Of a stretch of 18,447 nt of DNA, positions 1,307 to 14,656 are shown in pieces. Position numbers and translations under genes: made by a program. Each line of letters opens with the position of its first letter. Positions within the stretch are counted from its first letter, which is position 1. Where the stretch lies: IMG/VR virus record IMGVR_UViG_2698536506_000007; one strand, given 5' to 3'. The notes beneath the pieces were generated by a model. The model made no database searches and was not told the DNA's origin. It worked only from the letters and a program-made list of their open reading frames with translations. The stretch comes from a virus (Duplodnaviria; Heunggongvirae; Uroviricota; Caudoviricetes).

Positions 1307-3772
1307 TTAAAAATCAACCTGACTCGGGATCAGTTTTTGCCAGATAGCTGAAACTTGTTTTGCCTGGTGGCGGGCATCATCCAGTGCATTATGGCGTACG
1401 CCTTCGAACGGAATAGCTGTTCTGGCATCGAAGTCTATGGCTTTTCCCAGATCAACGATTGTGCGCACATCGCGATCGTTGCAGTAACGCCACGGGCAGG
1501 GGATACCCTGCCGTTCATATGAACGGCGTAAAATCACGTTGTCGAAGCTGGCTCCATTTCCCCAGACCCGAACAAAAAATTCACCGGAGTTTTCGTCGAT
1601 AAATTCCCGCAATTGCAATAGTGCATCATCTAACGGAATTTGATTTACCAATATTGCAGATCTGGCCTCGCTGGACTGCGCCAGCCACCATTCGATTACG
1701 TCACCATCGGGAGTAGCACCTTTGTCCATTGCGTCAACCAGACTGATGACAACATAAAATATCGGTCCGATTTCCCCGGTCTGCGGATCGAAAAACACTG
1801 CAGCAATAACTACGATGGGCGCATTGCTGTTAATTCCCATCGTTTCAAGGTCGATCATCAGATGGTGCCATACCCTGCTGGTGGATGTGATAATGTGATG
1901 ACTGTTCACCGTAATTAAGGGATCTGCCGCCTCGCCAGTTTTACTATCGCTGGTGTGATGCTGATCGTTACCAGCATTCTCATTGTTCGGATGTTCAGCG
2001 CCTTCCATTTCCTCCGGATCATTTTCCTGAGTTTCAGCCTGATTCTCTTCATCGAATGTTTCCTGGTATGTTGCGTCGCCCATCACCGCGCCACAGTCAG
2101 GACAGTTGCCGCCGCCGGTCTGACCGCAGGTGGTGCAGACTTTTTCCGGTTCTTGTTGCTCTTCTGGTTCAGGCTGTTTCGTTTCTGGCTCGTTTTGTAA
2201 CGCATTTGGGCTGTTCTGTTCCGCTTTCTGGTCGTTTTGTTCCGATTCGGGCAGGTTCTGGTTCACAGAATCGCGGGTTTCAATCCCCTTAACCCATTTC
2301 GGATCATTCGGGTCGCTAATTCCGTCAACGAACTCACCGCGATGGACTGCCAGTATTTTGTCGGCATCAGGCTGGTTGATATTGGCTGCCTGCATAATTT
2401 TGTTTACTTCGTCAGCGGTAACTTTTACCTGTTTAACTGGATCTACCTGTTCCTGAGTATCCAGCGATTGCGTGTCCTGGTGATGTTCAGTTGTATCCGG
2501 CTCCATTGCTTCGGCCGTTGCCTGTTCATCTGCCATTGCGTCAGACGGTTGTGATTTTTCCTCATTATTTTTTTCTTCTTCTGTTTCGCGTTCAGCAGCC
2601 AGTTCGCGGTTAACTTCTTCCAGGATATCTTTTTCCGGTGTATGTCGTGCAGCAGTGAGAGTTTCCTTGCTGGGGTTCTCGTGATCAGTCTCCGTTAAGT
2701 GGGCGTTGATATACCCCTGAAGGCGTCCCGGGTAGTGATAAAACTCAGGGTGAGCGCTCCGGATAAGTGCAAAAATAGCGGCGCGGGAATAATCCAGAAT
2801 ACCCGGGGTTGCGCGAAGTGCTGCGGACCATTCTTTGAACGGACTTTCTCTTTTCAGGACGATTTCTTTTGCGCGACGATAAACGCTGCCCGGAATTTCA
2901 TAAATATTAAAATCCATCGGAAGTGTGGCTGCTGCAATCTCCACATCCAGCGTATCGAAGGTGTGTACTAAATTCGGATTGCGATCGGTTTTGTTCCCGC
3001 CACCGGCATTAGCACCGGAAGCCGTGCGGGTGATACGCGAAACACGATTTCCTTTCATCCACTCTTTTGTCAGCAGACCGCGATCGGTGTAGTCGGCGTC
3101 CAGGTATGCTTCGATAAAAGAGGTTATCAGTCCCAGGTCCGAATTTACGGGGGCGGGGAAAACTTTGTCAGTGTCTCGCACCAGTTTGTGGAGATCGCGA
3201 ATCTCCAGCGGTTCGAGTTGCGCTGCTTTATTTGAGATAGCCAGCGCGGTAACGGCGGGAAGTTTTTCATCCTGTGCGTTATGTAATGCGCGCAGTTCGT
3301 CCCGCGAAACGTGTGTGATCGGTTTTTCGCTGCCGTGCTGTGCCAGCCATCGAACAGGCAGAATCTGACCTGAAACCGGCAGGAGCATGTTCTCCTCAAT
3401 CTCAGTCATGTCTTCGCCGTTGACGTTGGTATTGTCAGTGTTGGCTGGTTTGTCCTGCGCAGAGGGTGAGGGCGCGATAAATACCATTGTGATGCCATCT
3501 TCCCCGCCTTTTTCGTAACGGTTACAGAATTCAGTATCAAACACGCCTTCAGGTGGAAGGTCATTCACAACGGGTAAATGGACGCGGACGGGTTTTTTAA
3601 AGTCGTCTTCATCATAATCGTTGTCATCCATTGCGGTAATGCAGCGGGAGATGGCAACAGATAATTTTTTTGCTGTAGTCCAGTAAAAACCACCTTTAAT
3701 TCCAAGGCGTTTTCTGACTTTGTCATTTTTTGCTTCACAATATAATGCAAATTCTTCTTTATCAGTGCTCAT
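1307..3772 (-). CDS. Large early-left nuclease (821 aa) of the kind annotated as exodeoxyribonuclease VIII; C-terminal DEDDh/DnaQ-like 3'-5' exonuclease domain, central acidic low-complexity region with a CxxC..CxxC zinc ribbon
   Basis: Long ORF with SD (GAGG 8 nt upstream of the ATG at 3770-3772). C-terminal motifs MIDLETMG (Exo I, D-x-E), GNGASFDNVIL (Exo II) and HNALDDARH (Exo III, H-x4-D). CTTCGQTGGGNCPDCG zinc ribbon. Position equals recE/exo in lambdoid prophages. Confidence 0.8.
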   Translation of the reverse strand: MSTDKEEFALYCEAKNDKVRKRLGIKGGFYWTTAKKLSVAISRCITAMDDNDYDEDDFKKPVRVHLPVVNDLPPEGVFDTEFCNRYEKGGEDGITMVFIAPSPSAQDKPANTDNTNVNGEDMTEIEENMLLPVSGQILPVRWLAQHGSEKPITHVSRDELRALHNAQDEKLPAVTALAISNKAAQLEPLEIRDLHKLVRDTDKVFPAPVNSDLGLITSFIEAYLDADYTDRGLLTKEWMKGNRVSRITRTASGANAGGGNKTDRNPNLVHTFDTLDVEIAAATLPMDFNIYEIPGSVYRRAKEIVLKRESPFKEWSAALRATPGILDYSRAAIFALIRSAHPEFYHYPGRLQGYINAHLTETDHENPSKETLTAARHTPEKDILEEVNRELAAERETEEEKNNEEKSQPSDAMADEQATAEAMEPDTTEHHQDTQSLDTQEQVDPVKQVKVTADEVNKIMQAANINQPDADKILAVHRGEFVDGISDPNDPKWVKGIETRDSVNQNLPESEQNDQKAEQNSPNALQNEPETKQPEPEEQQEPEKVCTTCGQTGGGNCPDCGAVMGDATYQETFDEENQAETQENDPEEMEGAEHPNNENAGNDQHHTSDSKTGEAADPLITVNSHHIITSTSRVWHHLMIDLETMGINSNAPIVVIAAVFFDPQTGEIGPIFYVVISLVDAMDKGATPDGDVIEWWLAQSSEARSAILVNQIPLDDALLQLREFIDENSGEFFVRVWGNGASFDNVILRRSYERQGIPCPWRYCNDRDVRTIVDLGKAIDFDARTAIPFEGVRHNALDDARHQAKQVSAIWQKLIPSQVDF

Positions 3773-3849
3773 TGATAAACCTCATTACAGATTTAAGGGT
3801 GAACAAATCCCTGTCATTGCTGACATATAAAAATGAAACCGAATATCAA

Positions 3850-4053
3850 TTACGGCGCTGTTTTAAGTCCTGCCGGGATTTCGTTATTATCCTGGTGAAT
3901 AACTTTATCGACCGGATAACAGTTACCGGGAATTTTCTGTTCATCTGCGGCAGCCATGCATTCTTTCATTGAGCTGTATACGCCAATAACCATGTCAACT
4001 GGTTCACCGGAAACAAGAAAAACCGTCAGAACAAGTGCAAATGTGGTATTCAT
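3850..4053 (-). CDS. Small probably exported protein (about 67 aa; N-terminal hydrophobic signal-like segment MNTTFALVLTVFLVSG)
   Basis: ORF-track ORF 3850-4107 trimmed to the internal ATG at 4051-4053, which overlaps the stop of the upstream gene (ATGA) and is 9 nt from an AAAAAGG run; the alternative start at 4060-4062 has no spacer. Confidence 0.5.
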   Translation of the reverse strand: MNTTFALVLTVFLVSGEPVDMVIGVYSSMKECMAAADEQKIPGNCYPVDKVIHQDNNEIPAGLKTAP

Positions 4054-4238
4054 TGCCAGCATCCTTTTTGCGTCGGGCGTAAACGGGCCAGCATTGAAGC
4101 AATGCATATCTCATTTGATGAATCTGGCTCATGCTTTATCTGATTAATGGCATCCTCAATAAAGTTTTTATCGCCAGTGATAACGCCAATTTCAAAACGA
4201 GTCTCAGGCGTAGTGGAATTGAGTAATAACGTTTCCAT
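4050..4238 (-). CDS. Small hypothetical protein (62 aa), translationally coupled to the next gene
   Basis: Internal ATG at 4236-4238 preceded by GAGGA at 7-nt spacing; stop TGA overlaps the next ATG (ATGA). The longer 107-aa version in the ORF track lacks an SD. Confidence 0.5.
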   Translation of the reverse strand: METLLLNSTTPETRFEIGVITGDKNFIEDAINQIKHEPDSSNEICIASMLARLRPTQKGCWQ

Positions 4239-4430
4239 TATCGCGTCCTCAACAATGAATTTTGTGATGCGGTGCCTGGTGCCTCCAGGTGACGTTAACC
4301 AGTTAACAATTAACGCCGGAATACAGGGACCCGCCTGCAAGTACCTACCCATAAGTATTGATACGGAGAACAAATGGTCTTTTAACTGTTCCGCGTGCGC
4401 TTAGCCGCATTCACCACATCACAAAATTCA

Positions 4431-4475
4431 CTTTAAAAAGGGCGGACATCAGCCAGCAATTAAACTGATGCCGCC
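4431..4475 (-). terminator. Candidate rho-independent terminator for leftward transcription
   Basis: On the minus strand: stem GGCGGCATCAG / CTGATGTCCGCC (one bulge), 12-nt loop, followed by CTTTTTAAA. Confidence 0.4.
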
Positions 4476-4726
4476 AAAGGTCAATACTCAACATGGAGTG
4501 TTGTAGCGGGGTTGTCACTTAAGCGTATGGTCAACCTGCCAACCCGGTGCCACAATGGGGTAAGGATAACCCCGCCATACTTACCGCCGCGCCATTTCGC
4601 GGAGTGCCACAACCGGAAGCGCACGGTCGAAGAAATCTAACGACAAGACTTCTAAGGAAAAGAAACCTTCGCCGTGCGATTTCGTGTTGTGTGCCTGCTT
4701 TTAACCACATCAGGCGAGGTGGTTCC

Positions 4727-4759
4727 TGTTGTTCCCCAACAACAAGAAATTTGTATAAT
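4727..4759 (+). promoter_or_regulatory. Candidate promoter with extended -10 (TGtTATAAT, 4752-4759) preceded by a 7-bp inverted repeat (TGTTGTT-cccc-AACAACA, 4727-4744)
   Basis: Perfect TATAAT with TG at -15/-14, about 32 nt upstream of the ATG at 4791; no convincing -35; the palindrome just upstream could be an operator. Confidence 0.35.
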
Positions 4760-4790
4760 CCGGATACCCCAACAACACAGAGAGTTAAGA

Positions 4791-5309
4791 ATGCTATCTG
4801 GAATAACTTCATCAATAACGGCAATTAAAGTCTCGATTGATTTATTACAGGTAATACTTGATGCAAAAAGCCAATCTGAACGTGAAAAGGCTGTCTACGA
4901 AATGCGTCGCCAACTGGCAGACTTACAAATACAGAACGCAGAGCTAGCGAAAACGCTCGCGCTTCAGTACGAGGAAATACTCTTGCTTAAGCAAAAATGT
5001 CATGAAATTGACGAGCGTAATCGAAAACTTGAATGCTATACGATACACAAAACTGGTTTTGGGCATTTTGTCTATGCTTTCAGGAACAGCCTCGACGAAG
5101 AAGACACATGTTTTCACTATGCCTGTCCCAATTGCTATCAGCATGGTGTAATAGCAATACTTCAACCTGTTGAAATTGGTGAGCATGATAAGTTCCATAT
5201 TTCTAAATGCCTGAAATGTGATTCGCGCTTTAAATTTGAACGCAATGATGACTATATACCGCCCCCATCTGAAGAAGAGATAGGTAGAGCATTGAGCAGC
5301 AATCCGTAG
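4791..5309 (+). CDS. Hypothetical protein (172 aa): N-terminal amphipathic/coiled-coil region plus C-terminal CxxC..CxxC zinc ribbon; opposite orientation to the surrounding early-left operon
   Basis: ORF-track ORF 4674-5309 trimmed to the ATG at 4791 (MLSGITSS...); motifs CPNC and CLKC; own promoter-like element upstream and hairpin plus T-run downstream. Confidence 0.6.
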   Translation: MLSGITSSITAIKVSIDLLQVILDAKSQSEREKAVYEMRRQLADLQIQNAELAKTLALQYEEILLLKQKCHEIDERNRKLECYTIHKTGFGHFVYAFRNSLDEEDTCFHYACPNCYQHGVIAILQPVEIGEHDKFHISKCLKCDSRFKFERNDDYIPPPSEEEIGRALSSNP

Positions 5310-5376
5310 GTTATTGCTGTTGTGGATATCCAGATTGTTAAAGAGCATGCCGGAAGGTTATCCGTGTCCGGCGCAC

Positions 5377-5410
5377 GACCACACGTAGCAGCGTGTTGGT
5401 CTCCATTTTT
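5377..5410 (+). terminator. Candidate rho-independent terminator of the rightward single-gene unit
   Basis: Stem GACCACACG / CGTGT(T)GGTC with loop TAGCAG, followed by CTCCATTTTT. Confidence 0.45.
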
Positions 5411-5471
5411 AATTCACCCCTTAATGGAGGATAAAATAATCGTGGTGCTGGTCGGCTCGGTCCCGCAGGTG

Positions 5472-6107
5472 TTACCCTTTAAACCAGTCAATCCAGAGTG
5501 GATAGTGTTCAGCATAAATATAGCTATACACATCCAGGTTGTATTTGCGGTCTGTCCTTAGCAGGTCGCAAATACAGGCCGCAGCTTCCAGGGCAGCAGC
5601 TTTGTTGCTGAATAACCATGTAGCAACATTCCGGCGATTATCTGTATCCCACTCTTTTGTGAGGGCTGACACCACGAAGGAGCCGTTGGTGTTGCCATCA
5701 AATACTTCCGTTTCCAGATTTTTAAGTAATGCCTGGTGAATTTTTGCCAGGTATTCAGTCGGAATTTCGCCACGAATTCGGATAAGTTTGTCATAAACAA
5801 ACATGTTCCCCGCATATGGCGATTTTTCTTTCTTTTGTTCACTGGCAGGCTGGTCAATTTCGTCTTCGGTTGGTTTCGTATTGATGTTTTGCACTGTCGT
5901 TTCTGCAATTTTCTTTGCCACACTCTCTGGGTCGTGTTTATTTACAGACGCACAGAAATACAATCCGGTAAACGCATCGTGCACATTACGAGCCATGTTA
6001 TCAATGGTTTCTTTCGTTGCAGATTCAGCCATAGCTTCGTTCAGACGTTGACGTAGTGTGTGTGCTGCAATCTCCTGGATTGATAGCGGTAAATCTTTAA
6101 ATTCCAT
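5472..6107 (-). CDS. Hypothetical early-left protein (about 211 aa)
   Basis: Long ORF; preferred start is the ATG at 6105-6107 (MEFKDL...) with GAGG 6 nt upstream; the ORF-track start at 6119 would overlap the upstream stop (ATGA). Confidence 0.7.
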   Translation of the reverse strand: MEFKDLPLSIQEIAAHTLRQRLNEAMAESATKETIDNMARNVHDAFTGLYFCASVNKHDPESVAKKIAETTVQNINTKPTEDEIDQPASEQKKEKSPYAGNMFVYDKLIRIRGEIPTEYLAKIHQALLKNLETEVFDGNTNGSFVVSALTKEWDTDNRRNVATWLFSNKAAALEAAACICDLLRTDRKYNLDVYSYIYAEHYPLWIDWFKG

Positions 6108-6118
6108 CGTTAACCTCA

Positions 6119-6349
6119 TCAGTCAGTATTTCTGGCTAACCAGCGACGCGCGCCAGCTTCGGTTTTAAACGTTTTGCTTTTGGTATACGTCATCGCGGTG
6201 AACGTACCGTCCTGGTTTGGAAACACGCCGTATACCAGAGATTCGTTGTTGCCAAGATCGATAGTATCCATGCTGACCTCATTTCCCCTTAACGCCGGGG
6301 CAGCGGAACAAAAACCTGCTGCATAGTTAAAGTTGAACCCTGCCGTCAT
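6119..6349 (-). CDS. Small hypothetical early-left protein (76 aa, or 50 aa from the internal ATG at 6269-6271)
   Basis: First ORF downstream of the presumptive leftward promoter region; the internal ATG has a strong SD (GAGG, 6-nt spacing); no arginine-rich N-like motif seen. Confidence 0.5.
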   Translation of the reverse strand: MTAGFNFNYAAGFCSAAPALRGNEVSMDTIDLGNNESLVYGVFPNQDGTFTAMTYTKSKTFKTEAGARRWLARNTD

Positions 6350-6451
6350 GTTCTTACGCCTCGGGCTGGCTACTTACCCCCTGACCACTGCCTGGTAACT
6401 CGAAGTATTGCCCTGCGTTCTGTGGGGCGGGGTGGGTTGGTTGATACAATC

Positions 6452-6501
6452 TACAAATTAAAATTTAATTGGTCAATGATTTTTATCATTAAATTTGTAA
6501 T
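6452..6501. promoter_or_regulatory. Candidate OL-like operator/leftward promoter region
   Basis: Inverted half-sites TACAAATT (6452-6459) and AATTTGTAAT (6492-6501); the 13-mer TTAAATTTGTAAT (6489-6501) recurs exactly at 7731-7743; on the minus strand TTGACC-17-TAGATT is promoter-like (-35 = rc of 6471-6476, -10 = rc of 6448-6453). Confidence 0.35.
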
Positions 6502-6510
6502 TTCGGGCTA

Positions 6511-6539
6511 TTGCATTAGTCCCAAAATGGGACTAACAT
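6511..6539 (+). promoter_or_regulatory. Candidate higBA promoter (TTGCAT-17-TAACAT) with a perfect 9-3-9 palindrome TTAGTCCCA-aaa-TGGGACTAA (6516-6536) in the spacer; predicted leaderless transcript
   Basis: The -10 ends 6 nt before the higB ATG (6546) and there is no SD; the palindrome is positioned like an autoregulatory antitoxin operator. Confidence 0.4.
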
Positions 6540-6545
6540 ACAGTT

Positions 6546-6848
6546 ATGAAGATCATCTCAGTTAAAACGCTCAGGGATTTTTGGGCGGAGAATCCCGATG
6601 CAGAACAACCGCTAAGGGCATGGGTGGATGAGGCAGCAAAAGCTGACTGGAAAAGCCCGGCAGACATTAAGGCGCAATACCGAACGGCCAGTATATTGAA
6701 AAACCGGCGCGTGGTATTCAACATAAAAGGCAACCATTACCGTTTAATTGTTGCAATTGCGTATCAGCGAGGATGGGTATTTGTTAAATTCATCGGAAAC
6801 CATAAGGAATACGATGCCATTGATGCTGATACCATCGAACTGGAGTAA
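6546..6848 (+). CDS. higB: HigB-family (RelE/ParE superfamily) toxin, mRNA interferase (100 aa)
   Basis: C-terminal FNIKGNHYRLIVAIAYQRGWVFVKFIGNHKEYD matches the E. coli K-12 HigB pattern FNVGGNELRVVAMVFF...THKEYD (from memory); toxin-first order, followed 2 nt later by an HTH antitoxin. Confidence 0.85.
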   Translation: MKIISVKTLRDFWAENPDAEQPLRAWVDEAAKADWKSPADIKAQYRTASILKNRRVVFNIKGNHYRLIVAIAYQRGWVFVKFIGNHKEYDAIDADTIELE

Positions 6849-6850
6849 GC

Positions 6851-7210
6851 ATGAACATCAAACCTATTCGTACAGAGCAAGATTATAAAGCCGCGTTGCG
6901 TGCTGTTGAGCCCATGTTCGACAATGAGCCGGAAATTAACACGCCTGAGGGGGATTTCTTTGAGGTAATGTGTTTGCTAATAGAGGAATATGAAAAAAAA
7001 CATTATCCCATTGAGCCACCATCCCCAATTGAAGCTATAAGATTTCGCATGGAACAGCAGGGGCTGACTGTGAAAGATTTGGAACCCGCAATTGGAAAAA
7101 AAAATCGGGTTTACGAGGTGTTGAATGGCACCAGAAGCCTTACGTTACCAATGATTCGCCGCCTTCATAATCAATTTGGTATTCCCCTAGAAAGCCTGGT
7201 GGGGTTATAA
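6851..7210 (+). CDS. higA: HigA-family HTH (XRE-type) antitoxin (119 aa)
   Basis: C-terminal IRFRMEQQGLTVKDLEPAIGKKNRVYEVLNGTRSLTLPMIRRLHNQFGIPLESL parallels the E. coli HigA HTH region; SD GGAG 6 nt upstream; immediately downstream of higB. Confidence 0.85.
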   Translation: MNIKPIRTEQDYKAALRAVEPMFDNEPEINTPEGDFFEVMCLLIEEYEKKHYPIEPPSPIEAIRFRMEQQGLTVKDLEPAIGKKNRVYEVLNGTRSLTLPMIRRLHNQFGIPLESLVGL

Positions 7211-7226
7211 AATCTGTTAGTCATTT

Positions 7227-7277
7227 GCCTGATGCTTGTTCCAGAAAAGGAACGCATCAGGCAGTTTTGTTTTTCTG
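7227..7277 (+). terminator. Rho-independent terminator of higBA, overlapping the 3' end of the convergent repressor gene
   Basis: Long hairpin GCCTGATGCTTGTTCC-agaaaa-GGAACGCATCAGGC followed by AGTTTTGTTTTTCTG. Confidence 0.55.
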
Positions 7278-7649
7278 CCGCAGTAACTCTTCAAGTTTCC
7301 GTTTATAGAAATCGCGTTTTTGCTCCATATCTCGAATGATCTGCTCTGTGTCGCTTTGAGGTAACTCATCTAAAAGCGATATGATTTTTCGTTGTTGTTC
7401 TGTTAGTTGCAGTTGGTTGTTATTACTGGATACAGCCATCTTATCGCCGAGAGTTTCTTCTTCCATAAAGAACCAATGGACGGGATGTTGTGAGAGCTCT
7501 GCTAATTTTTCCAGTTTATCCATTCTTGGCATCACGCCTTTCAACCAACCTTGCACGGATTGGGGTTTCACACCAAGACGTCTTCCCAGCTCTGACTGGT
7601 TTATATTCAATTCCTGCAACACCTGCTGAAGGCGTTTTACAAAGATCAT
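7257..7649 (-). CDS. Phage repressor, short HTH type without an S24 peptidase domain (about 130 aa)
   Basis: HTH motif NQSELGRRLGVKPQSVQGWLKG; divergent from the cro-like gene; SD GAGGGG upstream of the ATG at 7647-7649; C-terminal half looks coiled-coil-like, with no Ala-Gly/Ser-Lys autocleavage module. Confidence 0.8.
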   Translation of the reverse strand: MIFVKRLQQVLQELNINQSELGRRLGVKPQSVQGWLKGVMPRMDKLEKLAELSQHPVHWFFMEEETLGDKMAVSSNNNQLQLTEQQRKIISLLDELPQSDTEQIIRDMEQKRDFYKRKLEELLRQKNKTA

Positions 7650-7703
7650 CACCACCCCTCATAAGCTAATCTCGTAATCCTACAGAAAAAATTGATAGGC
7701 GGC

Positions 7704-7743
7704 ATTACAAATAGAAGTTGAATTTTAAGATTAAATTTGTAAT
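7704..7743. promoter_or_regulatory. Candidate OR-like operator region between the repressor and cro-like genes
   Basis: Inverted 9-mers ATTACAAAT (7704-7712) and ATTTGTAAT (7735-7743), the same half-site as at 6452-6501; rightward promoter-like TTGAAT-17-AATCAT (7718-7746). Confidence 0.4.
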
Positions 7744-7775
7744 CATCGATATCATCGTAAAGTCTGGAGGGGAAC

Positions 7776-8048
7776 ATGCAAAGAAGTACTCAAGTGAAAA
7801 TCCTGTCGATAATGAGCCAATCAGAATTAGGGCGTCGTCTTGGTAAAACACCACAAACCATAAGCGGGTGGTTTAAAAAACGAGTTCCTGCAGAGGAGGT
7901 TATTCCAGCATGTGAGGCGCTTGGATGGGGAGTAACTCCGCATGAATTGCGCCCTGATAAATACCCTAACTCAACGGACGGTTTACCTGTTGGATATAAG
8001 GCTAACACACCAAATGCACCGGAGTTGATTCATGAAAATCAAGCATGA
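7776..8048 (+). CDS. Cro/YdaS-like HTH protein (90 aa)
   Basis: HTH SQSELGRRLGKTPQTISGWFKK; divergent from the repressor; strong SD (GGAGGGG); C-terminal ...TPHELRPDKYP resembles the YdaS family as recalled. Confidence 0.8.
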   Translation: MQRSTQVKILSIMSQSELGRRLGKTPQTISGWFKKRVPAEEVIPACEALGWGVTPHELRPDKYPNSTDGLPVGYKANTPNAPELIHENQA

Positions 8049-8457
8049 ACACATCCGCATGGCGATGAATGCCTGGGCACATCTGAACGGTGAAAAAGTT
8101 CCGGCTGCGAAAATTACCAAAGCGTATTTCGAACTCGGTATGACGTTCCCGGAATTGTACGACGACAGCCATCCGGAAGCCCTGGGCCGTAACACCCAGA
8201 AAATTTTCCGCTGGGTGGAGAAAGACACTCCTGATGCGGTTAAAAAAATTCAGGCGTTGTTACCAGCGATCGAAAAAGCGATGCCGCCTCCGCTGGTGGC
8301 CCGAATGCGCAGCCACAGTTCCGCTTATTTTCGGGAGTTGGTAGAGACGAAGGAACGGCTGGTGAAAGATATTGATGATTTCGTTGCATCAGCGATCGTT
8401 CTGTTCGATCAGATGAATCGTGGTGGCCCGGCAGGAAACACTCTGGCTGTGCATTAA
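8032..8457 (+). CDS. YdaT-like protein (141 aa)
   Basis: Starts MKIKHEHI as I recall for Rac YdaT; overlaps the cro/YdaS-like gene by 17 nt; the Cro-like then YdaT-like order matches Rac. Confidence 0.65.
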   Translation: MKIKHEHIRMAMNAWAHLNGEKVPAAKITKAYFELGMTFPELYDDSHPEALGRNTQKIFRWVEKDTPDAVKKIQALLPAIEKAMPPPLVARMRSHSSAYFRELVETKERLVKDIDDFVASAIVLFDQMNRGGPAGNTLAVH

Positions 8458-8470
8458 TTGGGTAATAAAT

Positions 8471-8980
8471 ATGAGTAATGACAAAAAATTGACACTGAGC
8501 GTTTACGAAAACAGTCCGCACATCTGGCGTGGCGGTTTATCTGATGTGGAGCTGGCAGAGTGGTTGATACATAAAGCTAATGCGCTGCTCTGGCGTTTGT
8601 CAGCCAGAGAACAGCGCAAGGAAACCAGAATAAAGCTGGCTGATGCAGAAGCGTGTGCCGGGCTTATTGAGGATTATACAAATCTTGGTATTTCTTCAGC
8701 AGAGAGTGATCCCATTCAGCCTCTGAGCAGGGAGTCAATCCAGCACGCTGGTTGTATGGCACATCTTGTAACTGCTCGTCAACATGAGGTGGGTATTGGA
8801 TCACTTTCGGTGGGATATTCGCTGATTCCAGAGCTGGTTGAAGCAAGAAAATCAGTTCAGAAAAAGAGAGATGACGCACTTCAATTATTGAGAGATCACT
8901 ATGGCGCGATACCAGAATGCGAACAGCGTCGATACCCTGAAGGTTATGAATGGATGCAGTCTCTTTTTGAAGTTCGCTAA
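8471..8980 (+). CDS. Hypothetical protein (about 169 aa)
   Basis: ORF-track ORF 8420-8980 trimmed to the ATG at 8471 (MSNDKKLTL...); sits between the YdaT-like and replication genes. Confidence 0.6.
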   Translation: MSNDKKLTLSVYENSPHIWRGGLSDVELAEWLIHKANALLWRLSAREQRKETRIKLADAEACAGLIEDYTNLGISSAESDPIQPLSRESIQHAGCMAHLVTARQHEVGIGSLSVGYSLIPELVEARKSVQKKRDDALQLLRDHYGAIPECEQRRYPEGYEWMQSLFEVR

Positions 8981-9197
8981 TCAATATGTCGAGACGAAGG
9001 TATGTTTCGGCGCGCAGCCAGGCTCTGTAATCCGGGAGCATTTCGGGGCTGTTACACCAGCGGTTTGTTGCTGCAACATTTAATACATGAGCCTGATAAA
9101 GGCTTTTCAAAAAATACATGTCGAACCTCCTCTGGTTCTGTTGATTGGGAACCACAGATTATATCCGGAGGAAGGTTCGGCACCAGATGAGGTAGCC

Positions 9198-10307
9198 ATG
9201 CGTGATTACGCAAAAGTTTCTCCGCGATTCTGGCTGGGAGAAACGGGGAGAGAACTTAGAAAGGCGGGTGCAGAAGCGCAAGTTGTTGCTTTTTACCTGA
9301 TGACATCCCCTCACGCAAATATGCTGGGTTTGTATTACCTGCCAGTTTTATACCTTGCTCATGAAACCGGGCTTGGTCTGGAAGGGGCTTCAAAGGGGCT
9401 TAAAAGGGCTGTTGAAGCTGGTTTTTGTAGCTATGACCATGATGCCGAGATGGTCTGGGTCCATGAAATGGCAGCCTGGCAGGTTGGGGAAACGTTGAAG
9501 CCAGGCGATAACCGTTGTGCAGGTGTCAGGAATGAGTATGCATCATTACCTGAAAACGCTTTTCTGTCAGCGTTTTACGACAGATATAAAACGGATTTCC
9601 ATCTTGATGTGAGGCGGAATAATAGCCGAAATTCGGTAAGGGGCTTCGAAGGGGCTTTTAAGGGGCTTCGAAGCCAAGAACAGGAGCAGGAGAAAGAACA
9701 GGAACAGGACAAAAACACTATGGTTCATGGCGAAAAAAACACCATGAACCAGGCAGGGGATGTTCAGACCGTAAATTCTGGTCAGCCAGCAGGCACGACA
9801 CCGGAAGCCGATTCGGCGTATGCGCTGAAAGCCGATTCGGGCGCTGTGCAGCAGGCGATGACCGCAGGGTCGGAGCAATCACACCAACTGCAGCAGCCTG
9901 AAGCCGATTCCGCCATTCAGCGGGAAGCCGATCGGGTAGTCCCGGAAAACACCGGGCGGCCTGTGGGACGAGTGGATTATCCGGATGTGTTCGAACAGGT
10001 CTGGCGGGAATACCCGTTGCGTGCCGGGGCAAACCCGAAGAAATCCGCATTCAGTGCCTGGAAGGCCAGATTGCGCGAGGGGGTGCCACCAGAGACCATG
10101 CTGGATGGTGTGAGGCGTTACGCGAGATACCTGGCGGCGACCGGGAAAGCGGGAACGGAATTTGTTCAGCGAGCGACGACGTTTTTTGGACCGGACCGGA
10201 ATTTTGAAAACCCCTGGTTGCTCCCGGTAAGCGGCACGAACAACCAGCGTTGTGTGAATCACATTTCTGAACCGGACACCGAAATTCCACCAGGGTTCAG
10301 GGGATAA
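9198..10307 (+). CDS. Putative replication initiator/replisome organiser (about 369 aa; alternative upstream start at 9087)
   Basis: Position after cro/ydaT; contains two iteron clusters in its coding sequence (ori-within-gene arrangement as in lambda O); C-terminal ...FEQVWREYPLRAGANPKKSAFSAWKARL... resembles phage replication proteins; preferred ATG at 9198 has GAGG 5 nt upstream. Confidence 0.65.
   Translation: MRDYAKVSPRFWLGETGRELRKAGAEAQVVAFYLMTSPHANMLGLYYLPVLYLAHETGLGLEGASKGLKRAVEAGFCSYDHDAEMVWVHEMAAWQVGETLKPGDNRCAGVRNEYASLPENAFLSAFYDRYKTDFHLDVRRNNSRNSVRGFEGAFKGLRSQEQEQEKEQEQDKNTMVHGEKNTMNQAGDVQTVNSGQPAGTTPEADSAYALKADSGAVQQAMTAGSEQSHQLQQPEADSAIQREADRVVPENTGRPVGRVDYPDVFEQVWREYPLRAGANPKKSAFSAWKARLREGVPPETMLDGVRRYARYLAATGKAGTEFVQRATTFFGPDRNFENPWLLPVSGTNNQRCVNHISEPDTEIPPGFRG
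9384..9411. repeat. Iteron cluster 1: three GGGGCTT-type direct repeats at 11-bp spacing
   Basis: GGGGCTTcaaaGGGGCTTaaaaGGGCTG (9384-9411). Confidence 0.5.
9649..9677. repeat. Iteron cluster 2: three GGGGCTT direct repeats at 11-bp spacing, followed by a purine-rich tract and a 10-bp inverted repeat
   Basis: GGGGCTTcgaaGGGGCTTttaaGGGGCTT (9649-9677); downstream CAGGAGCAGGAGAAAGAACAGGAACAGGACAAAAACAC and TGGTTCATGG..CCATGAACCA (about 9718-9750). Confidence 0.5.
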
Positions 10308-10352
10308 GTTTTGTTTGAGATTGGTAAATAATTTTTAACGGGAGAAATTTTA

Positions 10353-11138
10353 ATGGAAACGTTGATTGATACGTTAAAAGCGATGCAAAAGGTGACGTGC
10401 ACTGAGCTTGCTACCAGTTTGGGCATTGCACCGGCTGAGGCGATTAAAATGTTGCGGGAGTACGAAGAGCAGGGAGAAGTTGTATCGGTTAATGGTTACT
10501 GGTCTGTTTCAGAACGACAAAGTGGCGTGAAAGAAAAAACAGTGCCGGTGTGTAAAGCGGAAAGAAAATCCCGCATGGTGGTCAGCAGAAAAGACCGTGA
10601 GCCACTGAATCGCTGCGACATCCTGTCCACACTTGCTCATGGTGGGGCAATGACCACCGCTGAGATTGCAATTGCTGTGGGGCGTGCTGATTGCGTCAGG
10701 TCGCTGGTTTCTGCGATGGAAAAGCTTTGCCGCGATGGCATGGCGATTAAGCTGGGACAGGGGAAGGGGTGTAAGTGGATGCTGGTAAAAGAAACCGGGG
10801 AAAATTTACCAGCAGAGCCGAAATTTGTATCGGTAGCGAAAACTGATGGTAAAGCCTTTCCTCAGCCAGCGGGGGTTGCGTTACCAGTACAGGAGGTTGC
10901 AACACAGGAAGATATTAAAACAGAAACTGTGGCGGACATTGTGCAGTCGCTGCCATCGTTTACCGAAACGCGTGCGAATGACCTGATTTTACCATCGCTG
11001 CACATGGCAAACCGCGAACTACGTCGGGCGAAAAATCATGTCCGGAAGTGGGAGCGAGTCTGCGCGGCGCTGCGGGAGCTTAACAAGCACCGGGATATTG
11101 TACGGCAGATGAATTGTTCCAGAGAGGATGTGAAGTGA
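10353..11138 (+). CDS. Hypothetical protein (261 aa), possibly with two winged-helix-like segments
   Basis: Long ORF after the replication gene; the winged-helix suggestion is from composition and pattern only. Confidence 0.65.
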   Translation: METLIDTLKAMQKVTCTELATSLGIAPAEAIKMLREYEEQGEVVSVNGYWSVSERQSGVKEKTVPVCKAERKSRMVVSRKDREPLNRCDILSTLAHGGAMTTAEIAIAVGRADCVRSLVSAMEKLCRDGMAIKLGQGKGCKWMLVKETGENLPAEPKFVSVAKTDGKAFPQPAGVALPVQEVATQEDIKTETVADIVQSLPSFTETRANDLILPSLHMANRELRRAKNHVRKWERVCAALRELNKHRDIVRQMNCSREDVK

Positions 11139-11449
11139 GATGGCGTGGCTGGGTGCGGGCTGAAATCCTTATTCTGCGGCAGTGCGCGGGAACAATGAAG
11201 GTAAAAAGCATCGGCAGTCTGATTGGTCGTAGTGAGGCGGCTGTCAGGACGAAAGCCCGGGAGATGGGAATAAGTCTGATTCTGCGTGGTGATTTTCACC
11301 AGTCAGCAAAATATCTTCAGAGCGATATTGAGCTGGCGCGACAACTGCATCAGCGTGGCGTGTCCAGGAGAGAAATCGCCATAAAATTTGGAATGTCGTT
11401 GCGCACAGTGAATAACTACGTTTATTTCGACAGGAGAGTTCAGGAGTGA
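11135..11449 (+). CDS. Small DNA-binding protein with C-terminal HTH (about 104 aa; GTG start overlapping the upstream stop)
   Basis: GTGA overlap with the preceding gene, AGAGAGGA SD; C-terminal GVSRREIAIKFGMSLRTVNNYV is HTH-like. Confidence 0.55.
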   Translation: MRWRGWVRAEILILRQCAGTMKVKSIGSLIGRSEAAVRTKAREMGISLILRGDFHQSAKYLQSDIELARQLHQRGVSRREIAIKFGMSLRTVNNYVYFDRRVQE

Positions 11450-11742
11450 GGGTGAGAGTTTATATTGCCGGCCCAATGACGGGATATAAAAATTTCAACC
11501 GTGAGGCGTTTCACAAGGCGGAAGAGGAACTGAAACGTGAAGGGCATACCGTCTTAAACCCGGCAGTACTTCCGGACGGACTGACTCAGTTGCAGTACAT
11601 GGATATCTGCATGGCGATGATACGTTGCGTGGATGCGATTTATATGCTGAATGGCTGGCAGCGGTCGGCAGGTGCTAAGGCAGAACTGGCACTTGCGGAG
11701 AAGCTGGGGCATGCGGTTATTTTACAGAAGGCGATGCAGTGA
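11446..11742 (+). CDS. DUF4406-like / nucleoside 2-deoxyribosyltransferase-like small protein (98 aa)
   Basis: N-terminal VYIAGPMTG motif typical of that fold; overlapping start/stop with neighbours. Confidence 0.6.
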   Translation: MRVRVYIAGPMTGYKNFNREAFHKAEEELKREGHTVLNPAVLPDGLTQLQYMDICMAMIRCVDAIYMLNGWQRSAGAKAELALAEKLGHAVILQKAMQ

Positions 11743-11921
11743 ATATGTTCTGGATAATCAAAATTGAGCTGTTTGTTATTGTTTTCCTGATCAGTGCATT
11801 TCTGGCAGCGGCTTTTATTATCTGGGAAAATCCTTTTCGACATATCAGTCCACTGTTTGCAATCAGGGTGTTAATAGCATCGGTTGTAGTGGTGTGGTTA
11901 ATTTGTTTTGCATTATTTTAA
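11739..11921 (+). CDS. Small membrane protein (about 60 aa, two hydrophobic helices)
   Basis: GTG start overlapping the upstream stop (or ATG at 11745); strongly hydrophobic sequence. Confidence 0.45.
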   Translation: MNMFWIIKIELFVIVFLISAFLAAAFIIWENPFRHISPLFAIRVLIASVVVVWLICFALF

Positions 11922-11934
11922 TGGAGTTAATGTT

Positions 11935-12249
11935 ATGAACGAAATCAAAGAAATGCCGGTAGAACGTGATGCATATGGATGCTGGACACATCCTGAATAT
12001 GAAAAATTTTGTGATGGCCGGGAATATATTTCGACGGAAGAATTTAATGCATGGATGAAGGTGAATAATCTTCAGTGGACCATTCGCGCAATGGATGAAG
12101 ATGATTTTAATCCGGATGCGGATGGTCCTGATATTGCCGCATGGGAGCCGGAACGACCAGAGGGTGAGGGGTGGTTTATTGGCTCCATTCATGACACGGA
12201 AGACGGTCCGGTTTGTATCTGGTTGCGGAATTGTGAGGTGACACAGTGA
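11935..12249 (+). CDS. Hypothetical protein (104 aa)
   Basis: ATG at 11935 preceded by GGAG; acidic protein; ORF-track ORF 11908-12249 trimmed. Confidence 0.6.
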   Translation: MNEIKEMPVERDAYGCWTHPEYEKFCDGREYISTEEFNAWMKVNNLQWTIRAMDEDDFNPDADGPDIAAWEPERPEGEGWFIGSIHDTEDGPVCIWLRNCEVTQ

Positions 12250-12575
12250 ATCAGATTAACTGTCAGGCACTGCGTGAGGCGGCAGAAGCAATAAAAACAG
12301 CAGCCACACCACAAAAATTGCTGGCATTTCGTATGAAAGCCACACCGCAGGTTGTGCTGGCTTTGCTGGATGAGCTGGAAGCCAGAGACAAACGCATTGC
12401 AGAGATGGAAGTAAGGGATGTGCAGTTACCGACTTGCTATGAGCCTCGATATGGTCATCCGATAAATACTGATGAGCGATGCGTCATGATACCCAGTGAG
12501 CATGGACGCTGGCTTTATCTGGCTGACTTAGAGCATGCACTACGAGTGGCAGGTATTCGCATCAAAGGAGAGTGA
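12246..12575 (+). CDS. Hypothetical protein (109 aa)
   Basis: GTGA overlap with the upstream gene; part of the overlapping nin-like gene chain. Confidence 0.6.
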   Translation: MNQINCQALREAAEAIKTAATPQKLLAFRMKATPQVVLALLDELEARDKRIAEMEVRDVQLPTCYEPRYGHPINTDERCVMIPSEHGRWLYLADLEHALRVAGIRIKGE

Positions 12576-12576
12576 C

Positions 12577-12933
12577 GTGGAAATAACCCCAGAAGATGAG
12601 TCCGGGAATATTGTTTTATTTCCGGTAAAAGAGGATGACCCACGTAATCAGGTGAATTTTCTTTATGAGCCATCGGAAAGACCATATTGTCATCACGCCT
12701 CTGTTCGGGTTGACGAAAAAGAGCGTCAGGTCCGCTGTAAAATCTGCGGTGCAGTTGTGGAGCCGTTTGACTGGATGCTCTCTGTGGCGAAAAGAGAAAC
12801 CAGACTGGCAGATGATGTAAGGCTATTGCGCCAGGAGGAACAGGAAAGACGTAAAAATATAGAAAAGCTAATTCAGATTGAGCGTAATGTGAAAGCGCGG
12901 ATACGCAGGGCGACAAAACTTAGCCCAGAATAA
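12577..12933 (+). CDS. Hypothetical protein with putative zinc ribbon (about 118 aa)
   Basis: GTG at 12577 preceded by AGGAG at 6 nt; cysteine motif C..HH..CKIC. Confidence 0.55.
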   Translation: MEITPEDESGNIVLFPVKEDDPRNQVNFLYEPSERPYCHHASVRVDEKERQVRCKICGAVVEPFDWMLSVAKRETRLADDVRLLRQEEQERRKNIEKLIQIERNVKARIRRATKLSPE

Positions 12934-13023
12934 TCAACATTATTATTGAAAATATAATCCTTAACCGGAGGGATTTCTGCACCCTCAAAACATCAGGAGG
13001 CCGCCCGAAAGGGCGGTAAGACA

Positions 13024-13197
13024 ATGCGAAAATTCAAAATAGTTATCGAAACGAGGATTGTTGGTGGCGTGCGTGAAGATGTATTTGAAGTGGATGATGA
13101 CGCGACTCCTGAGGAAATAGAAAACGAGGCAATTGATGTTTTCTTTAATCACTGCAATTACTCAATTTACGAAATAAAAGACGAAGTGGAAGAGTAA
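13024..13197 (+). CDS. Small acidic protein (57 aa)
   Basis: ORF below the track cutoff; AGGAGG (12995-13000) separated from the ATG by a GAAA-tetraloop hairpin (13001-13016); stop lies 1 nt before the next gene's ATG. Confidence 0.4.
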
Positions 13198-13198
13198 A

Positions 13199-13561
13199 AT
13201 GGCGACTTTGACCAAAGAAGAACGGTTTACCAAAGAGCAGTTAATAGCCCACGCAGAGGAGACTATTGAATCACAGAGACTGTGCATACCCGGCACAATC
13301 GACCATGACCTCATTCGCGCATATAAGATGGATATTGCTGTTCTGGAAATTGCACTGCAATTGCTGGCAGCAGCGCCAGTTGGTAAATTTTATGAATACA
13401 AACCAGTGGGGTATCAGCGTCTGGTCGACGAGTTAACCATGCAGGTAAAGCGGTTAGCCTGGCAACTGAGGAAAGCGAAGCCGGACTGCAAACTGCCGGA
13501 TAAGGCGATGGACTACCTGGAGCGAAACGGACTGAAAAGCGAGGAGGATGTTTTACGATGA
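13199..13561 (+). CDS. Hypothetical protein (120 aa)
   Basis: ORF in the nin-like chain. Confidence 0.6.
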
Positions 13562-13641
13562 CCTGGCCTGAAGCATTCACAACGGCAGGAATTGCGATGG
13601 CGGTGGCGCTGGTGGTGTATTCGATTTGCCGCTGGGGATAA
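13558..13641 (+). CDS. Possible small hydrophobic peptide (27 aa, [27 protein letters not shown])
   Basis: ATGA overlap with the upstream stop; single predicted TM segment; directly followed by a strong terminator. Confidence 0.3.
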
Positions 13642-13651
13642 TAAATAAAAA

Positions 13652-13677
13652 CCCCGGACTATCAATCCGGGGTTTTT
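13652..13677 (+). terminator. Rho-independent terminator ending the rightward nin-like gene chain
   Basis: CCCCGGA-ctatcaa-TCCGGGG followed by TTTTT. Confidence 0.7.
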
Positions 13678-13832
13678 GAAGGAAGCAAAAAGAAACGACT
13701 ACCATCGCTACCAGTTGCTACCACGACAAGTTAACGTATCACAGGCGAGCGCATTGCGCCGTTCTGACGCGCATAAGGTAGATCAGATTTCAGGAGCTGG
13801 CAATAAAAAGTTGGTGGAAAGTCTGATGCAGA

Positions 13833-13860
13833 TGTGAAAAGACAGCCCCGAAAACGGGGC
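13833..13860 (-). terminator. Candidate terminator for the leftward coiled-coil gene
   Basis: Hairpin GCCCCG-aaaa-CGGGGC (13845-13860) immediately 3' of the gene; minus-strand downstream sequence TGTCTTTTCAC. Confidence 0.5.
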
Positions 13861-13868
13861 CGGATTTA

Positions 13869-14201
13869 CTAAGCACCAATAATTCTGAAGATGTAATCCT
13901 TGAAGATGAGAGCCAGAGCGGCAGCAACAATAAACCACTGGAGTCGATCAAACTTGGTTTCCAGTTTGTCCAGACGCTTATCAACAGATATTAGCTGGTT
14001 TTGTAAAGAATTAAAGCGACTATCGACCTCACGACGCAAGTTATCAACGTTGTCCTGCGAAGAATTGAATCGACTATCAATTTCACGACGGAGGTTATCA
14101 ACGTTTTCTTGTGTTGCCAGGTGTTGCATGTTCTGCTGGCGATGCAACAAAGCATTCAGCACATCGCTGGTGCTGAACTCAATTTTTTTGTCGTCACTCA
14201 T
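13869..14201 (-). CDS. Coiled-coil protein with C-terminal transmembrane anchor and an internal 18-aa tandem repeat (110 aa)
   Basis: Repeat NVDNLRREIDSRFNSSQD / NVDNLRREVDSRFNSLQN; C-terminal WFIVAAALALIF hydrophobic helix; opposite strand to its neighbours; flanked by terminators. Confidence 0.7.
   Translation of the reverse strand: MSDDKKIEFSTSDVLNALLHRQQNMQHLATQENVDNLRREIDSRFNSSQDNVDNLRREVDSRFNSLQNQLISVDKRLDKLETKFDRLQWFIVAAALALIFKDYIFRIIGA
14007..14114. repeat. Two tandem 54-bp repeats (in-frame duplication inside the coiled-coil gene)
   Basis: Unit starts CGACTATCGACCTCACGACG (14007) and CGACTATCAATTTCACGACG (14061). Confidence 0.7.
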
Positions 14202-14382
14202 GCTGGCCTCCTGTATAGGGAATCGTGGTACAGGAAAAACCTGTTAAGTAAATAGTAAAGTTAATCGCTTCACTCATCAAGAGAGGAAGCACAGAAGCGG
14301 TTGACGACAACAGAAATCAGAGACAATATTGCCGCTCGCCAGCCTGAACAACTGGCACCTGCTGCGCCAGCAGAGAAAACCA

Positions 14383-14655
14383 ATGGCGCACAACACCAAA
14401 CATCACAATTCTGATACCGCCCCTGCCAGCAGATACGGGCGGCGTTCACGCACATTTAAAACCGACTGGTTCCAGCATGATCCATGCACTGAAGAACAGG
14501 CCGAATGGCTGATACAGAACTACCGCAGACGTGGATACGAGTTTCAGAAAGCCCTCAGCCTTGACTTCCGACACTGGATAATTTCAGTCAGGCTCCCTTA
14601 TTCCGAACGTCCACCACACCCGTCCCGCACATTCCAGCAACGGATCTGGAGGTAA
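14383..14655 (+). CDS. Hypothetical basic protein (about 90 aa)
   Basis: ORF-track ORF 14329-14655 trimmed to the ATG at 14383; stop 1 nt before the DUF968 GTG; the ORF carries the DUF968 SD. Confidence 0.4.
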   Translation: MAHNTKHHNSDTAPASRYGRRSRTFKTDWFQHDPCTEEQAEWLIQNYRRRGYEFQKALSLDFRHWIISVRLPYSERPPHPSRTFQQRIWR

Positions 14656-14656
14656 C

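Follow-up and report, generated by a model that had tools for sequence, protein, structure and literature searches.

What is the function of a single gene that runs rightward inside a leftward prophage operon? The question is raised by an 18,447-nucleotide (nt) stretch of viral DNA (Caudoviricetes; IMG/VR virus record IMGVR_UViG_2698536506_000007), hereafter the window, which represents the early region of a Qin/Rac-like lambdoid Escherichia coli prophage and carries a counter-oriented gene for a 172-amino-acid (aa) protein within its leftward operon. A first-pass annotation, made from the DNA letters without database searches, had described the product as a predicted coiled coil followed by a CxxC..CxxC zinc ribbon, had left this architecture without a family name and had guessed at a defence or exclusion function. 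Here, we identify the protein as a divergent member of the Rip1 family, as judged by sequence homology, predicted fold, conserved residues, and genomic setting. We put the probability at roughly 0.7 that the gene, referred to below as the rip1-like gene, acts as a divergent Rip1-type single-protein sensor and effector of abortive infection, expressed from a sieB-type promoter and subject to a sas-like shut-off.

The 172-aa protein and the Rip1 family

Rip1, or ring interacting pore 1, was reportedly described by Patel, McCarthy, Taylor et al. in Nature 651:1060 (2026). According to a review, a meeting report, and a citing paper, Rip1 is a prophage-encoded anti-phage protein whose gene lies between the terminase genes of a Pseudomonas aeruginosa prophage; it is harmless alone, and its anti-phage role was identified by deletion and expression analyses (PMC13434031). 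Cells carrying Rip1 become round upon superinfection (PMC13434031, PMC12908700, PMC13601566), and the trigger, which appears at late gene expression, is a ring oligomer, which was the portal for Pseudomonas phages and, for E. coli phages, the 11-mer small terminase (PMC13434031). Cryo-electron microscopy (cryo-EM) showed 12 Rip1 subunits around the 11-mer small-terminase ring (PMC13434031, PMC12908700), with the C-terminal half touching the ring and the N-terminal amphipathic helices making the pore (PMC13434031). The pore breaches the inner membrane, killing the cell while infectious progeny are still incomplete (PMC13434031). These accounts also record that Rip1–ring complexes release dye from liposomes and that Rip1 homologues are common across proteobacteria, mainly in prophages (PMC13434031, PMC12908700, PMC13601566).

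To place the window protein, a profile of 67 homologues was compared with all PDB chain sequences. The best match was 9oox, the cryo-EM structure of Escherichia phage HK446 Rip1 bound to the T6 small terminase (E 1.5e-35), and the next match stood at 7e-4. The protein alone retrieved 9oox_L from the PDB sequences (E 6.1e-9), and BLASTP against full-length HK446 gp37 gave 24% identity over 150 aa (E 6e-12). In addition, an end-to-end match was obtained to PHROG 1244, a family of unknown function (E 7.5e-32). A tblastn search of phage genomes revealed homologues at 25–32% identity in HK620 (hkaP), HK629 and HK630 (HkaP), PhiR29 and PhiR49, and Klebsiella prophage-like phages, as well as in about 30 P. 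aeruginosa Mu-like phages, such as D3112 (orf25), MP38 (ORF25), DMS3, and JBD30 (gp30).

A word-based protein search returned near-identical proteins only; the wider family came into reach with an alignment as the query. At 50% identity, it comprised 4,282 clusters when E values up to 1e-3 were admitted and 3,157 clusters at the stricter limit of 1e-10. Pfam gave no match to the protein except a sub-threshold coiled coil, NCBIfam gave nothing usable (ECs_2282_CxxC scored 15.1 bits against a cutoff of 37), and PADLOC-DB v2.0.0 (2023), a library older than the Rip1 description, yielded no family at E up to 1. The SieB domain (PF14163) was not found in the protein by Pfam search. Clear homology to a known non-defence protein did not appear in these searches.

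An AlphaFold2 model based on the family alignment had a mean predicted local distance difference test score (pLDDT) of 83.6 and consisted of two helices (residues 2–24 and 28–80), a beta-rich domain (83–150), and a short C-terminal helix (161–169). When the model was searched against the PDB with Foldseek, the only significant matches were 9oox_M and 9oox_L (E 3e-7 and 1e-6), each with a probability of 1.00 and with template modelling scores, normalised by target, of 0.67 and 0.57 over 120–125 columns; the matched part of 9oox has no counterpart of the first ~35 residues. The model agrees with the helical N-terminal part and the C-terminal cysteine pairs (C112xxC115 and C140xxC143) foreseen by the first-pass annotation, and the PDB profile together with Foldseek gives the formerly unnamed architecture a name, Rip1.

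Conservation within the family is concentrated at a few positions. Residues L66, Y83, C112, C115, C140, and C143 were invariant in the 67 sequences, and K13, L38, Q46, G91, Y95, H109, L124, and Q125 were nearly so; the four cysteines were also invariant in an alignment of eight sequences. CxxC-N24-CxxC is a putative zinc-ribbon knuckle pair in the domain that would contact the ring. A hypervariable sensor domain was sought by comparing alleles, and none was found, divergence being even along the protein. A C-terminal tail of about 20 residues (153–172) was common only to alleles at the same site.

The characterised Rip1 proteins, HK446 gp37 and those of the P. aeruginosa Casadabanvirus prophages, have the same length (~165–172 aa) and the same layout of N-terminal helix, long helix, and C-terminal beta domain with CxxC...CxxC. 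The window protein differs from them in sequence, with 24% identity to HK446 and 25–28% to the Pseudomonas proteins, and in its extra tail. Closer in setting are HK620 hkaP and HK630 HkaP, family members with 28% identity over 90% of the query (E 2e-11), which have the same leader and the same counter-orientation but represent another allele in N-type lambdoid or P22-like backbones. HK620 hkaP has been annotated, from position alone, as a 'putative superinfection exclusion protein'; an experimental characterisation of hkaP was not found in the literature searched.

Transmembrane segments were not predicted in the protein, the maximum Kyte-Doolittle value over 18-residue windows being ~1.2. The predicted N-terminal helix (2–24) is rich in small and hydrophobic residues and moderately amphipathic, with a mean hydrophobicity of ~0.4 and a hydrophobic moment of 0.27–0.33, values that are compatible with a pore helix and not diagnostic of one. 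A protein with the Rip1 fold and ring binding could instead defend by sequestering or blocking the ring, like Tab, or like TerI for terminase, with no pore being formed. Such an activity would suit a weakly amphipathic N-terminal helix and a ring-contacting C-terminal domain that holds several strictly conserved residues, including all four cysteines, and non-lytic assembly blockers are known at comparable prophage moron sites. However, the N-terminal segment of ~25 residues, rich in small and hydrophobic ones, and the long helix that follows keep their length and character throughout the family, and over ~125 residues the model can be superposed on HK446 Rip1, which forms pores. We consider a purely sequestering protein unlikely. 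A pore-forming Rip1 is the preferred assignment. In the comparisons of sequence, fold, and genomic context the protein grouped with Rip1, and it is not a SieB protein, although it appears to sit under the regulatory cassette of SieB.

Genomic setting and turnover at the site

In 13 of 13 homologue contexts, the family gene was a single gene set against an operon whose transcription is limited to lytic growth, an arrangement likewise found for the characterised Rip1 genes of temperate phages. HK446 rip1 lies on the plus strand between the minus-strand N and ral/cIII genes, and family members occupy the position between N and cIII/ral in HK620, HK630, HK446, and Serratia, Hafnia, and Pantoea prophages. 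In Mu-like phages, the family gene lies between the two terminase genes. The window gene differs from these known positions, next to N or between terminase genes, in that it is located in a Qin/Rac-like dicB operon between dicF and the gene at the ydfC position.

In JBD26, the same inter-terminase site holds the proven defence gene tab (PMC10884400). Tab of P. aeruginosa phage JBD26 is encoded by a moron that runs against the late operon from its own promoter, and its 83 residues, according to its authors, resemble no protein of known function in sequence; it blocks tail assembly and needs anti-Tab for self-immunity (PMC10884400). Tab resembles Rip1 in acting late and in the death of the cell without release of progeny. 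Unlike for tab, a partner gene of the anti-Tab kind was not evident beside the window gene.

The known ligands of the family are packaging proteins, and this, together with the position between the terminase genes in Mu-like phages, would also suit a protein that works for the prophage itself during lytic growth, for instance as a checkpoint of packaging or an accessory that times lysis, with the resident terminase or portal as its target. Such a role is very unlikely, in our view. The gene always opposes the lytic operon and has its own promoter, as the 13 contexts illustrate; in lambdoid phages it occupies the early-left accessory region where sieB lies; it is dispensable, as empty and alternatively filled sites exist; and the characterised Rip1 was identified as anti-phage by deletion and expression analyses (PMC13434031). 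Defence of the lysogen by a Rip1-type protein is the reading that we retain.

The identical 172-aa protein was found in 258 blocks of public assemblies. Among the eight places listed, the gene always lay between dicB and the 211-aa/DUF1391 genes, whereas the prophages around it had immunity regions of at least six kinds, and their integrases or attachment sites were of three kinds. Because the exact protein recurs in 258 blocks and with at least six immunity regions among those eight places, the gene appears to be intact. In complete E. coli genomes the allele is rare (3 of 5,426).

At the same site, strains A19 and TK3046 carry alleles that are only 34–36% identical, between flanks that are 85–100% identical. 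Leader and downstream hairpins are part of these conserved flanks, as are roughly the last twelve codons of the gene. An essentially empty Qin-like site in E. coli 52F4 allowed the extent of the insert to be estimated (Table 1): the 52F4 flanks match the window to 4702 and again from 5348, with ~30 nt between. In BL21(DE3), the same leader is followed by a 66-aa open reading frame (ORF). The exchange of ~35%-identical alleles between near-identical flanks points to rapid allele turnover at a fixed site.

Promoter and antisense leader

The first-pass annotation had proposed that the gene has its own extended -10 promoter (TGtTATAAT). A perfect TATAAT is present, but the TG directly abuts it (TTTGTATAAT), so that the canonical TGnTATAAT is not formed. 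A lone TATAAT has a chance expectation of about one in this stretch, and a consensus promoter scanner did not call the rip1 promoter. The promoter call stands because it is homologous to the annotated P22 sieB promoter and is conserved across divergent alleles. Specifically, TGTTCC-N18-TATAAT in the window aligns with TGTACC-N19-TAAACT in P22 (annotated in OQ031658.1, 'sieB RNA start site'), and P22 sieB is expressed from the prophage in lysogens. The -10 is identical in the divergent alleles A19 and TK3046, and leader and promoter differ at hardly any base between alleles with proteins only ~35% identical. A -10-like hexamer ending 31–33 nt before the start codon was also present in HK620, HK446, 689R2, Serratia, Hafnia, and Pantoea, and none was scored for PhiR29.

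Database versions of the gene begin elsewhere. The RefSeq version encodes 211 aa from a GTG start at 4674, upstream of the promoter, and one GenBank record holds a 267-aa version; both extensions cross promoter and leader. The 172-aa start is supported because the homologues all begin at the M1 column in the family alignments.

We also considered that the ORF, though intact-looking, might be silent or decaying cargo that is unexpressed or inactive in a defective Qin/Rac-like prophage. The promoter is weak by consensus, among complete genomes the allele occurs only in the three mentioned above, and truncated 106-aa versions occur in some strains, which suggests gene disruption there. Decay is nevertheless hard to reconcile with an identical 172-aa sequence in 258 assembly blocks, from prophages with different integrases and immunity regions, with the retention of all family-invariant residues, and with a leader and promoter that stay near-identical while the proteins diverge. 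We judge it quite improbable that the gene is mere cargo, and an expressed Rip1-type gene is assumed in what follows.

When the 140 nt upstream of twelve homologues were compared, all enterobacterial alleles had a common ~105-nt element regardless of protein divergence. Its parts are arranged in the order GCCTGyCTTTT, hairpin HP1 (AACCAC...GTGGTT), hairpin HP2 with a C-rich loop, the -10-like hexamer, and a second copy of the C-rich motif. This element resembles sas, the cis-antisense RNA that regulates P22 sieB (Ranade & Poteete 1993, summarised in PMC12197685). The P22 sas sequence, published from RNA-seq (PMC13397905), matched the minus strand of the window at 4750..4690 with 82% identity over 62 nt (E 4e-11), with a local score of 92 as compared with 19 +/- 3.6 for shuffles, and matched the region just upstream of HK446 rip1 with 87% identity over 85 nt. 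HK446 rip1 accordingly has the same sas-like leader as the window gene. The sas-like element is complementary to the rip1 5' untranslated region (UTR), the Shine-Dalgarno sequence, and the start codon, and then contains HP2 and HP1. Rfam has no family for the leader.

The likeness to the SieB/Esc/sas system of P22 and lambda thus extends beyond the antisense RNA: the slot and the orientation are the same, rightward in the leftward early operon, and both the promoter and the ~105-nt leader encoding sas are homologous. SieB is likewise a prophage-expressed abortive-infection function, the role of the window gene being assigned by homology. However, the SieB protein is unrelated to the window protein, and its trigger and mechanism are different. 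The early guess at a defence or exclusion gene is supported by these comparisons, since Rip1 homology, the annotation of HK620 hkaP, and the P22 sieB-type promoter and leader all point to such a role by homology and context.

The palindrome that had been noticed just upstream of the gene is a genuine inverted repeat with 11-nt arms, and it corresponds to HP2 of the minus-strand element. Across 51 distinct leaders, compensatory changes occurred in 7 of the 9 pairs of HP2, 93.5% of cells were paired, and 0 of 500 shuffles reached the score, the sequences being related and the loci having been selected by the HP1 pattern, which makes HP1 uninformative in this test. In the minus orientation, 40 G-U pairs and 28 mismatches were counted, as compared with 9 G-U pairs and 59 mismatches in the plus orientation, and HP2 is part of the minus-strand minimum-free-energy fold. 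Because the folding energy of the leader was not significant on either strand (z -1.13 for the window element), the structural case is one from covariation. From the covariation and the G-U asymmetry, we favour HP2 as an RNA hairpin of an antisense transcript. A repressor operator was rejected as the role of the palindrome, given that the arms co-vary and the G-U pairs favour a minus-strand RNA.

HP1 is the most conserved part of the leader. On the minus strand, a GCCTG in its loop is complementary to a CAGGC just beyond HP1; in Serratia and Pantoea, this pair is replaced by CCGGG/CCCGG, with both sides changed, so that the sas-like element may fold at its 3' end into a pseudoknot or an alternative stem. 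HP1 of six leaders contains an A-C mismatch when read on the minus strand, where the plus strand would have a G-U pair. The C-rich motif is duplicated: one copy lies in the HP2 loop and 3' arm, the other upstream of the Shine-Dalgarno sequence. Both copies and the HP2 5' arm change together between lineages; the window has two copies of CCCCAACAAC, HK446 has two of CCCCTACAG, and CCACAGTCAA is found in duplicate elsewhere.

A minus-strand promoter was not called in 4300-5700, with which the cutting of sas from the leftward operon transcript is consistent. Processing from the operon transcript is also favoured because the leader is the sole sequence common to different cargo genes. These cargo genes were collected with a 27-nt DNA pattern derived from HP1. 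The pattern identified at least 120 viral contigs with the leader, behind which lay a Rip1-family gene in 32, a SieB gene in ~51 (PF14163, E 1e-25 to 1e-29), and small ORFs without a clear family in the rest, of 61, 64, 71, 81 (zinc-ribbon-like), 92–95 (weakly GhoS-like), and 97 aa. The cargo genes are counter-oriented, behind the same promoter and antisense element. Rip1, SieB, and several small ORFs would thus be interchangeable cargo behind one promoter/antisense leader, an arrangement that was not found in the literature searched and may be new.

Downstream of the gene, two hairpins and a T-run form a terminator-like element (-31.5 kcal/mol, folding z -1.9), and the hairpins are conserved in A19 and TK3046; the scanner did not call the terminator, whose stem is bulged. 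The gene had been credited with a terminator of its own. The hairpins and the T-run exist as described, but because they are also found at the empty site in 52F4, they belong to the backbone, and the terminator was rejected as part of the insert.

Proposed mechanism and the surrounding operon

For the window allele, the proposed mechanism is based on 24% sequence identity, conserved residues, a matching predicted fold, and a comparable location in the genome. Rightward transcription from the weak sieB-type promoter would take place in the lysogen, and the Rip1-like protein would stay inactive until terminase or portal rings appear during superinfection by another phage. On such a ring, twelve copies would then assemble via the cysteine-bearing C-terminal domain, and the N-terminal helices would open the inner membrane, so that the cell dies before virions are complete. 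Upon induction of the resident prophage, the leftward early transcript would run antisense through the rip1-like gene and would yield a sas-like RNA that masks the rip1 5' UTR, Shine-Dalgarno sequence, and start codon, with the result that no new Rip1 is made. In P22, sas shuts off SieB synthesis; it is produced during lytic growth and turns translation towards Esc, a shortened inhibitor.

Several observations weigh against this mechanism. The N-terminal helix is only moderately hydrophobic and amphipathic and is the least confident part of the helical region (pLDDT 65–75). Identity to characterised Rip1 proteins is 21–28%, and the trigger specificity, and even pore formation, could therefore differ. 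The -35 is poor, with no call by the consensus scan, and the folding energy of the leader is not significant. Furthermore, a sas-type switch is known for sieB only, and a translational shut-off leaves the Rip1 that is already present at induction, so that self-immunity is not fully explained.

Tentatively, sas-type RNA self-immunity may be independent of the cargo: the leftward early transcript would silence the prophage's own Rip1 in lytic growth, by a device common to SieB, Rip1, and at least eight small ORFs. We hold this generalisation to be possible and rather doubtful; if it is true, those small ORFs are candidate new defence genes. A bolder extension, drawn by analogy with Esc and SieB, is that internal starts might give an N-terminally truncated Rip1 that poisons pore assembly. 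Internal starts with a Shine-Dalgarno sequence exist in some alleles (ATG at codon 23 in HK446, TTG at codon 65 in the window, and several at codons 62–66); a conserved Esc-like in-frame internal start was not found among the alleles, the candidates being scattered.

Table 1. Coordinates of the rip1-like gene, its control elements, and neighbouring features in the window.
Feature	Position	Strand	Remarks
rip1-like coding sequence	ATG 4791 to TAG 5309	+	172 aa plus stop codon; by translation
Invariant Cys codons	within 5124..5219	+	C112 5124-5126; C115 5133-5135; C140 5208-5210; C143 5217-5219
Insert	~4703..5347		extent relative to the empty site in 52F4
-35-like TGTTCC	4730-4735	+	poor; 18-nt spacer
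-10 TATAAT	4754-4759	+	perfect hexamer; 31 nt before start codon
Second C-rich motif copy, CCCCAACAAC	4767-4776	+	just before Shine-Dalgarno sequence
Shine-Dalgarno GAGAG	4780-4784	+	6 nt before ATG
Terminator-like element	hairpins 5349-5372 and 5377-5402, then T-run TCCATTTTT, to 5409	+	by minimum-free-energy fold
sas-like cis-antisense RNA element	4690..4793, approximate ends	-	by similarity to P22 sas
HP2	4723-4748	-	TTCTTGTTGTT-GGGG-AACAACAGGAA; inverted repeat; overlaps plus-strand -35 region
HP1 with flanking GCCTG/CAGGC complementarity	4691..4724 (HP1 4703-4724)	-	most conserved leader part
DicB gene	4050-4373	-	neighbour
DicF-like small RNA	4440-4486	-	Rfam, below gathering: 37.9 vs 48 bits, E 2e-6
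214-aa ORF	5472-6119	-	neighbour; no Pfam match
DUF1391 gene	6119-6349	-	neighbour
higB/higA	6546-7210	+	between DUF1391 gene and repressor

To the left of the rip1-like gene, the minus strand carries, from left to right, an integrase, a DUF4224 gene, a RecE-type exonuclease, DUF1482, and DicB. To the right of higB/higA, a helix-turn-helix (HTH) repressor on the minus strand is followed by YdaS/YdaT-like genes on the plus strand. The rip1-like gene had been described as opposite to all its neighbours, which holds for the nearest ones, all on the minus strand; higB/higA, however, is also read rightward. This pair, a HigB toxin gene (PF09907, E 5e-33) with an HTH antitoxin-like gene, adds another counter-oriented insert to the leftward region, and sister prophages have ParE/PaaA2, RelE/RelB, or nothing at its position. 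The 214-aa ORF lies at the ydfC position of Qin, accompanies this rip1 allele in all places listed, and also adjoins the A19 allele.

The DicF-like small RNA lies just upstream of dicB in the leftward sense, covers the full length of the Rfam model, and ends in a hairpin and T-run terminator of its own (stem 4472-4445); it resembles a divergent DicF within a ydfABC-dicF-dicB order like that of Qin. Rfam gave no match in the window at gathering thresholds, and relaxed thresholds added this sub-threshold DicF only. The non-coding segment 4570-4702, between the DicF-like RNA and the insert, is found at 80–90% identity in 2,721 of 5,426 complete E. coli genomes, including BL21(DE3), and may be a processing region of the dicF precursor. 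Most matches to a 901-base query around the rip1-like gene in complete E. coli genomes stem from this segment alone.

Strain C5 is 100% identical over the 901 bases, in a prophage that adjoins yccA. Compared with C5, the window is a mosaic: 99% identity extends over 2175-6440 and 8021-15211, the immunity region (6440-8021) is replaced, and the first 2.2 kb of the window are 91% identical. The window arrangement agrees with one metagenome contig.

Knowledge of the Rip1 family goes back to early 2026, and its wide prophage distribution had already been reported; the gene described here is a divergent further member. Its assignment provides a mechanism-level hypothesis for a gene that is annotated 'hypothetical' in every record examined. 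It also locates a divergent allele of a recently described pore-forming defence within the dicB operon of Qin/Rac type, which is widespread in E. coli. The shared leader suggests how such prophages might avoid self-killing and offers a simple handle for further prophage-expressed exclusion genes. The possible sas-type self-immunity switch is the most useful lead.

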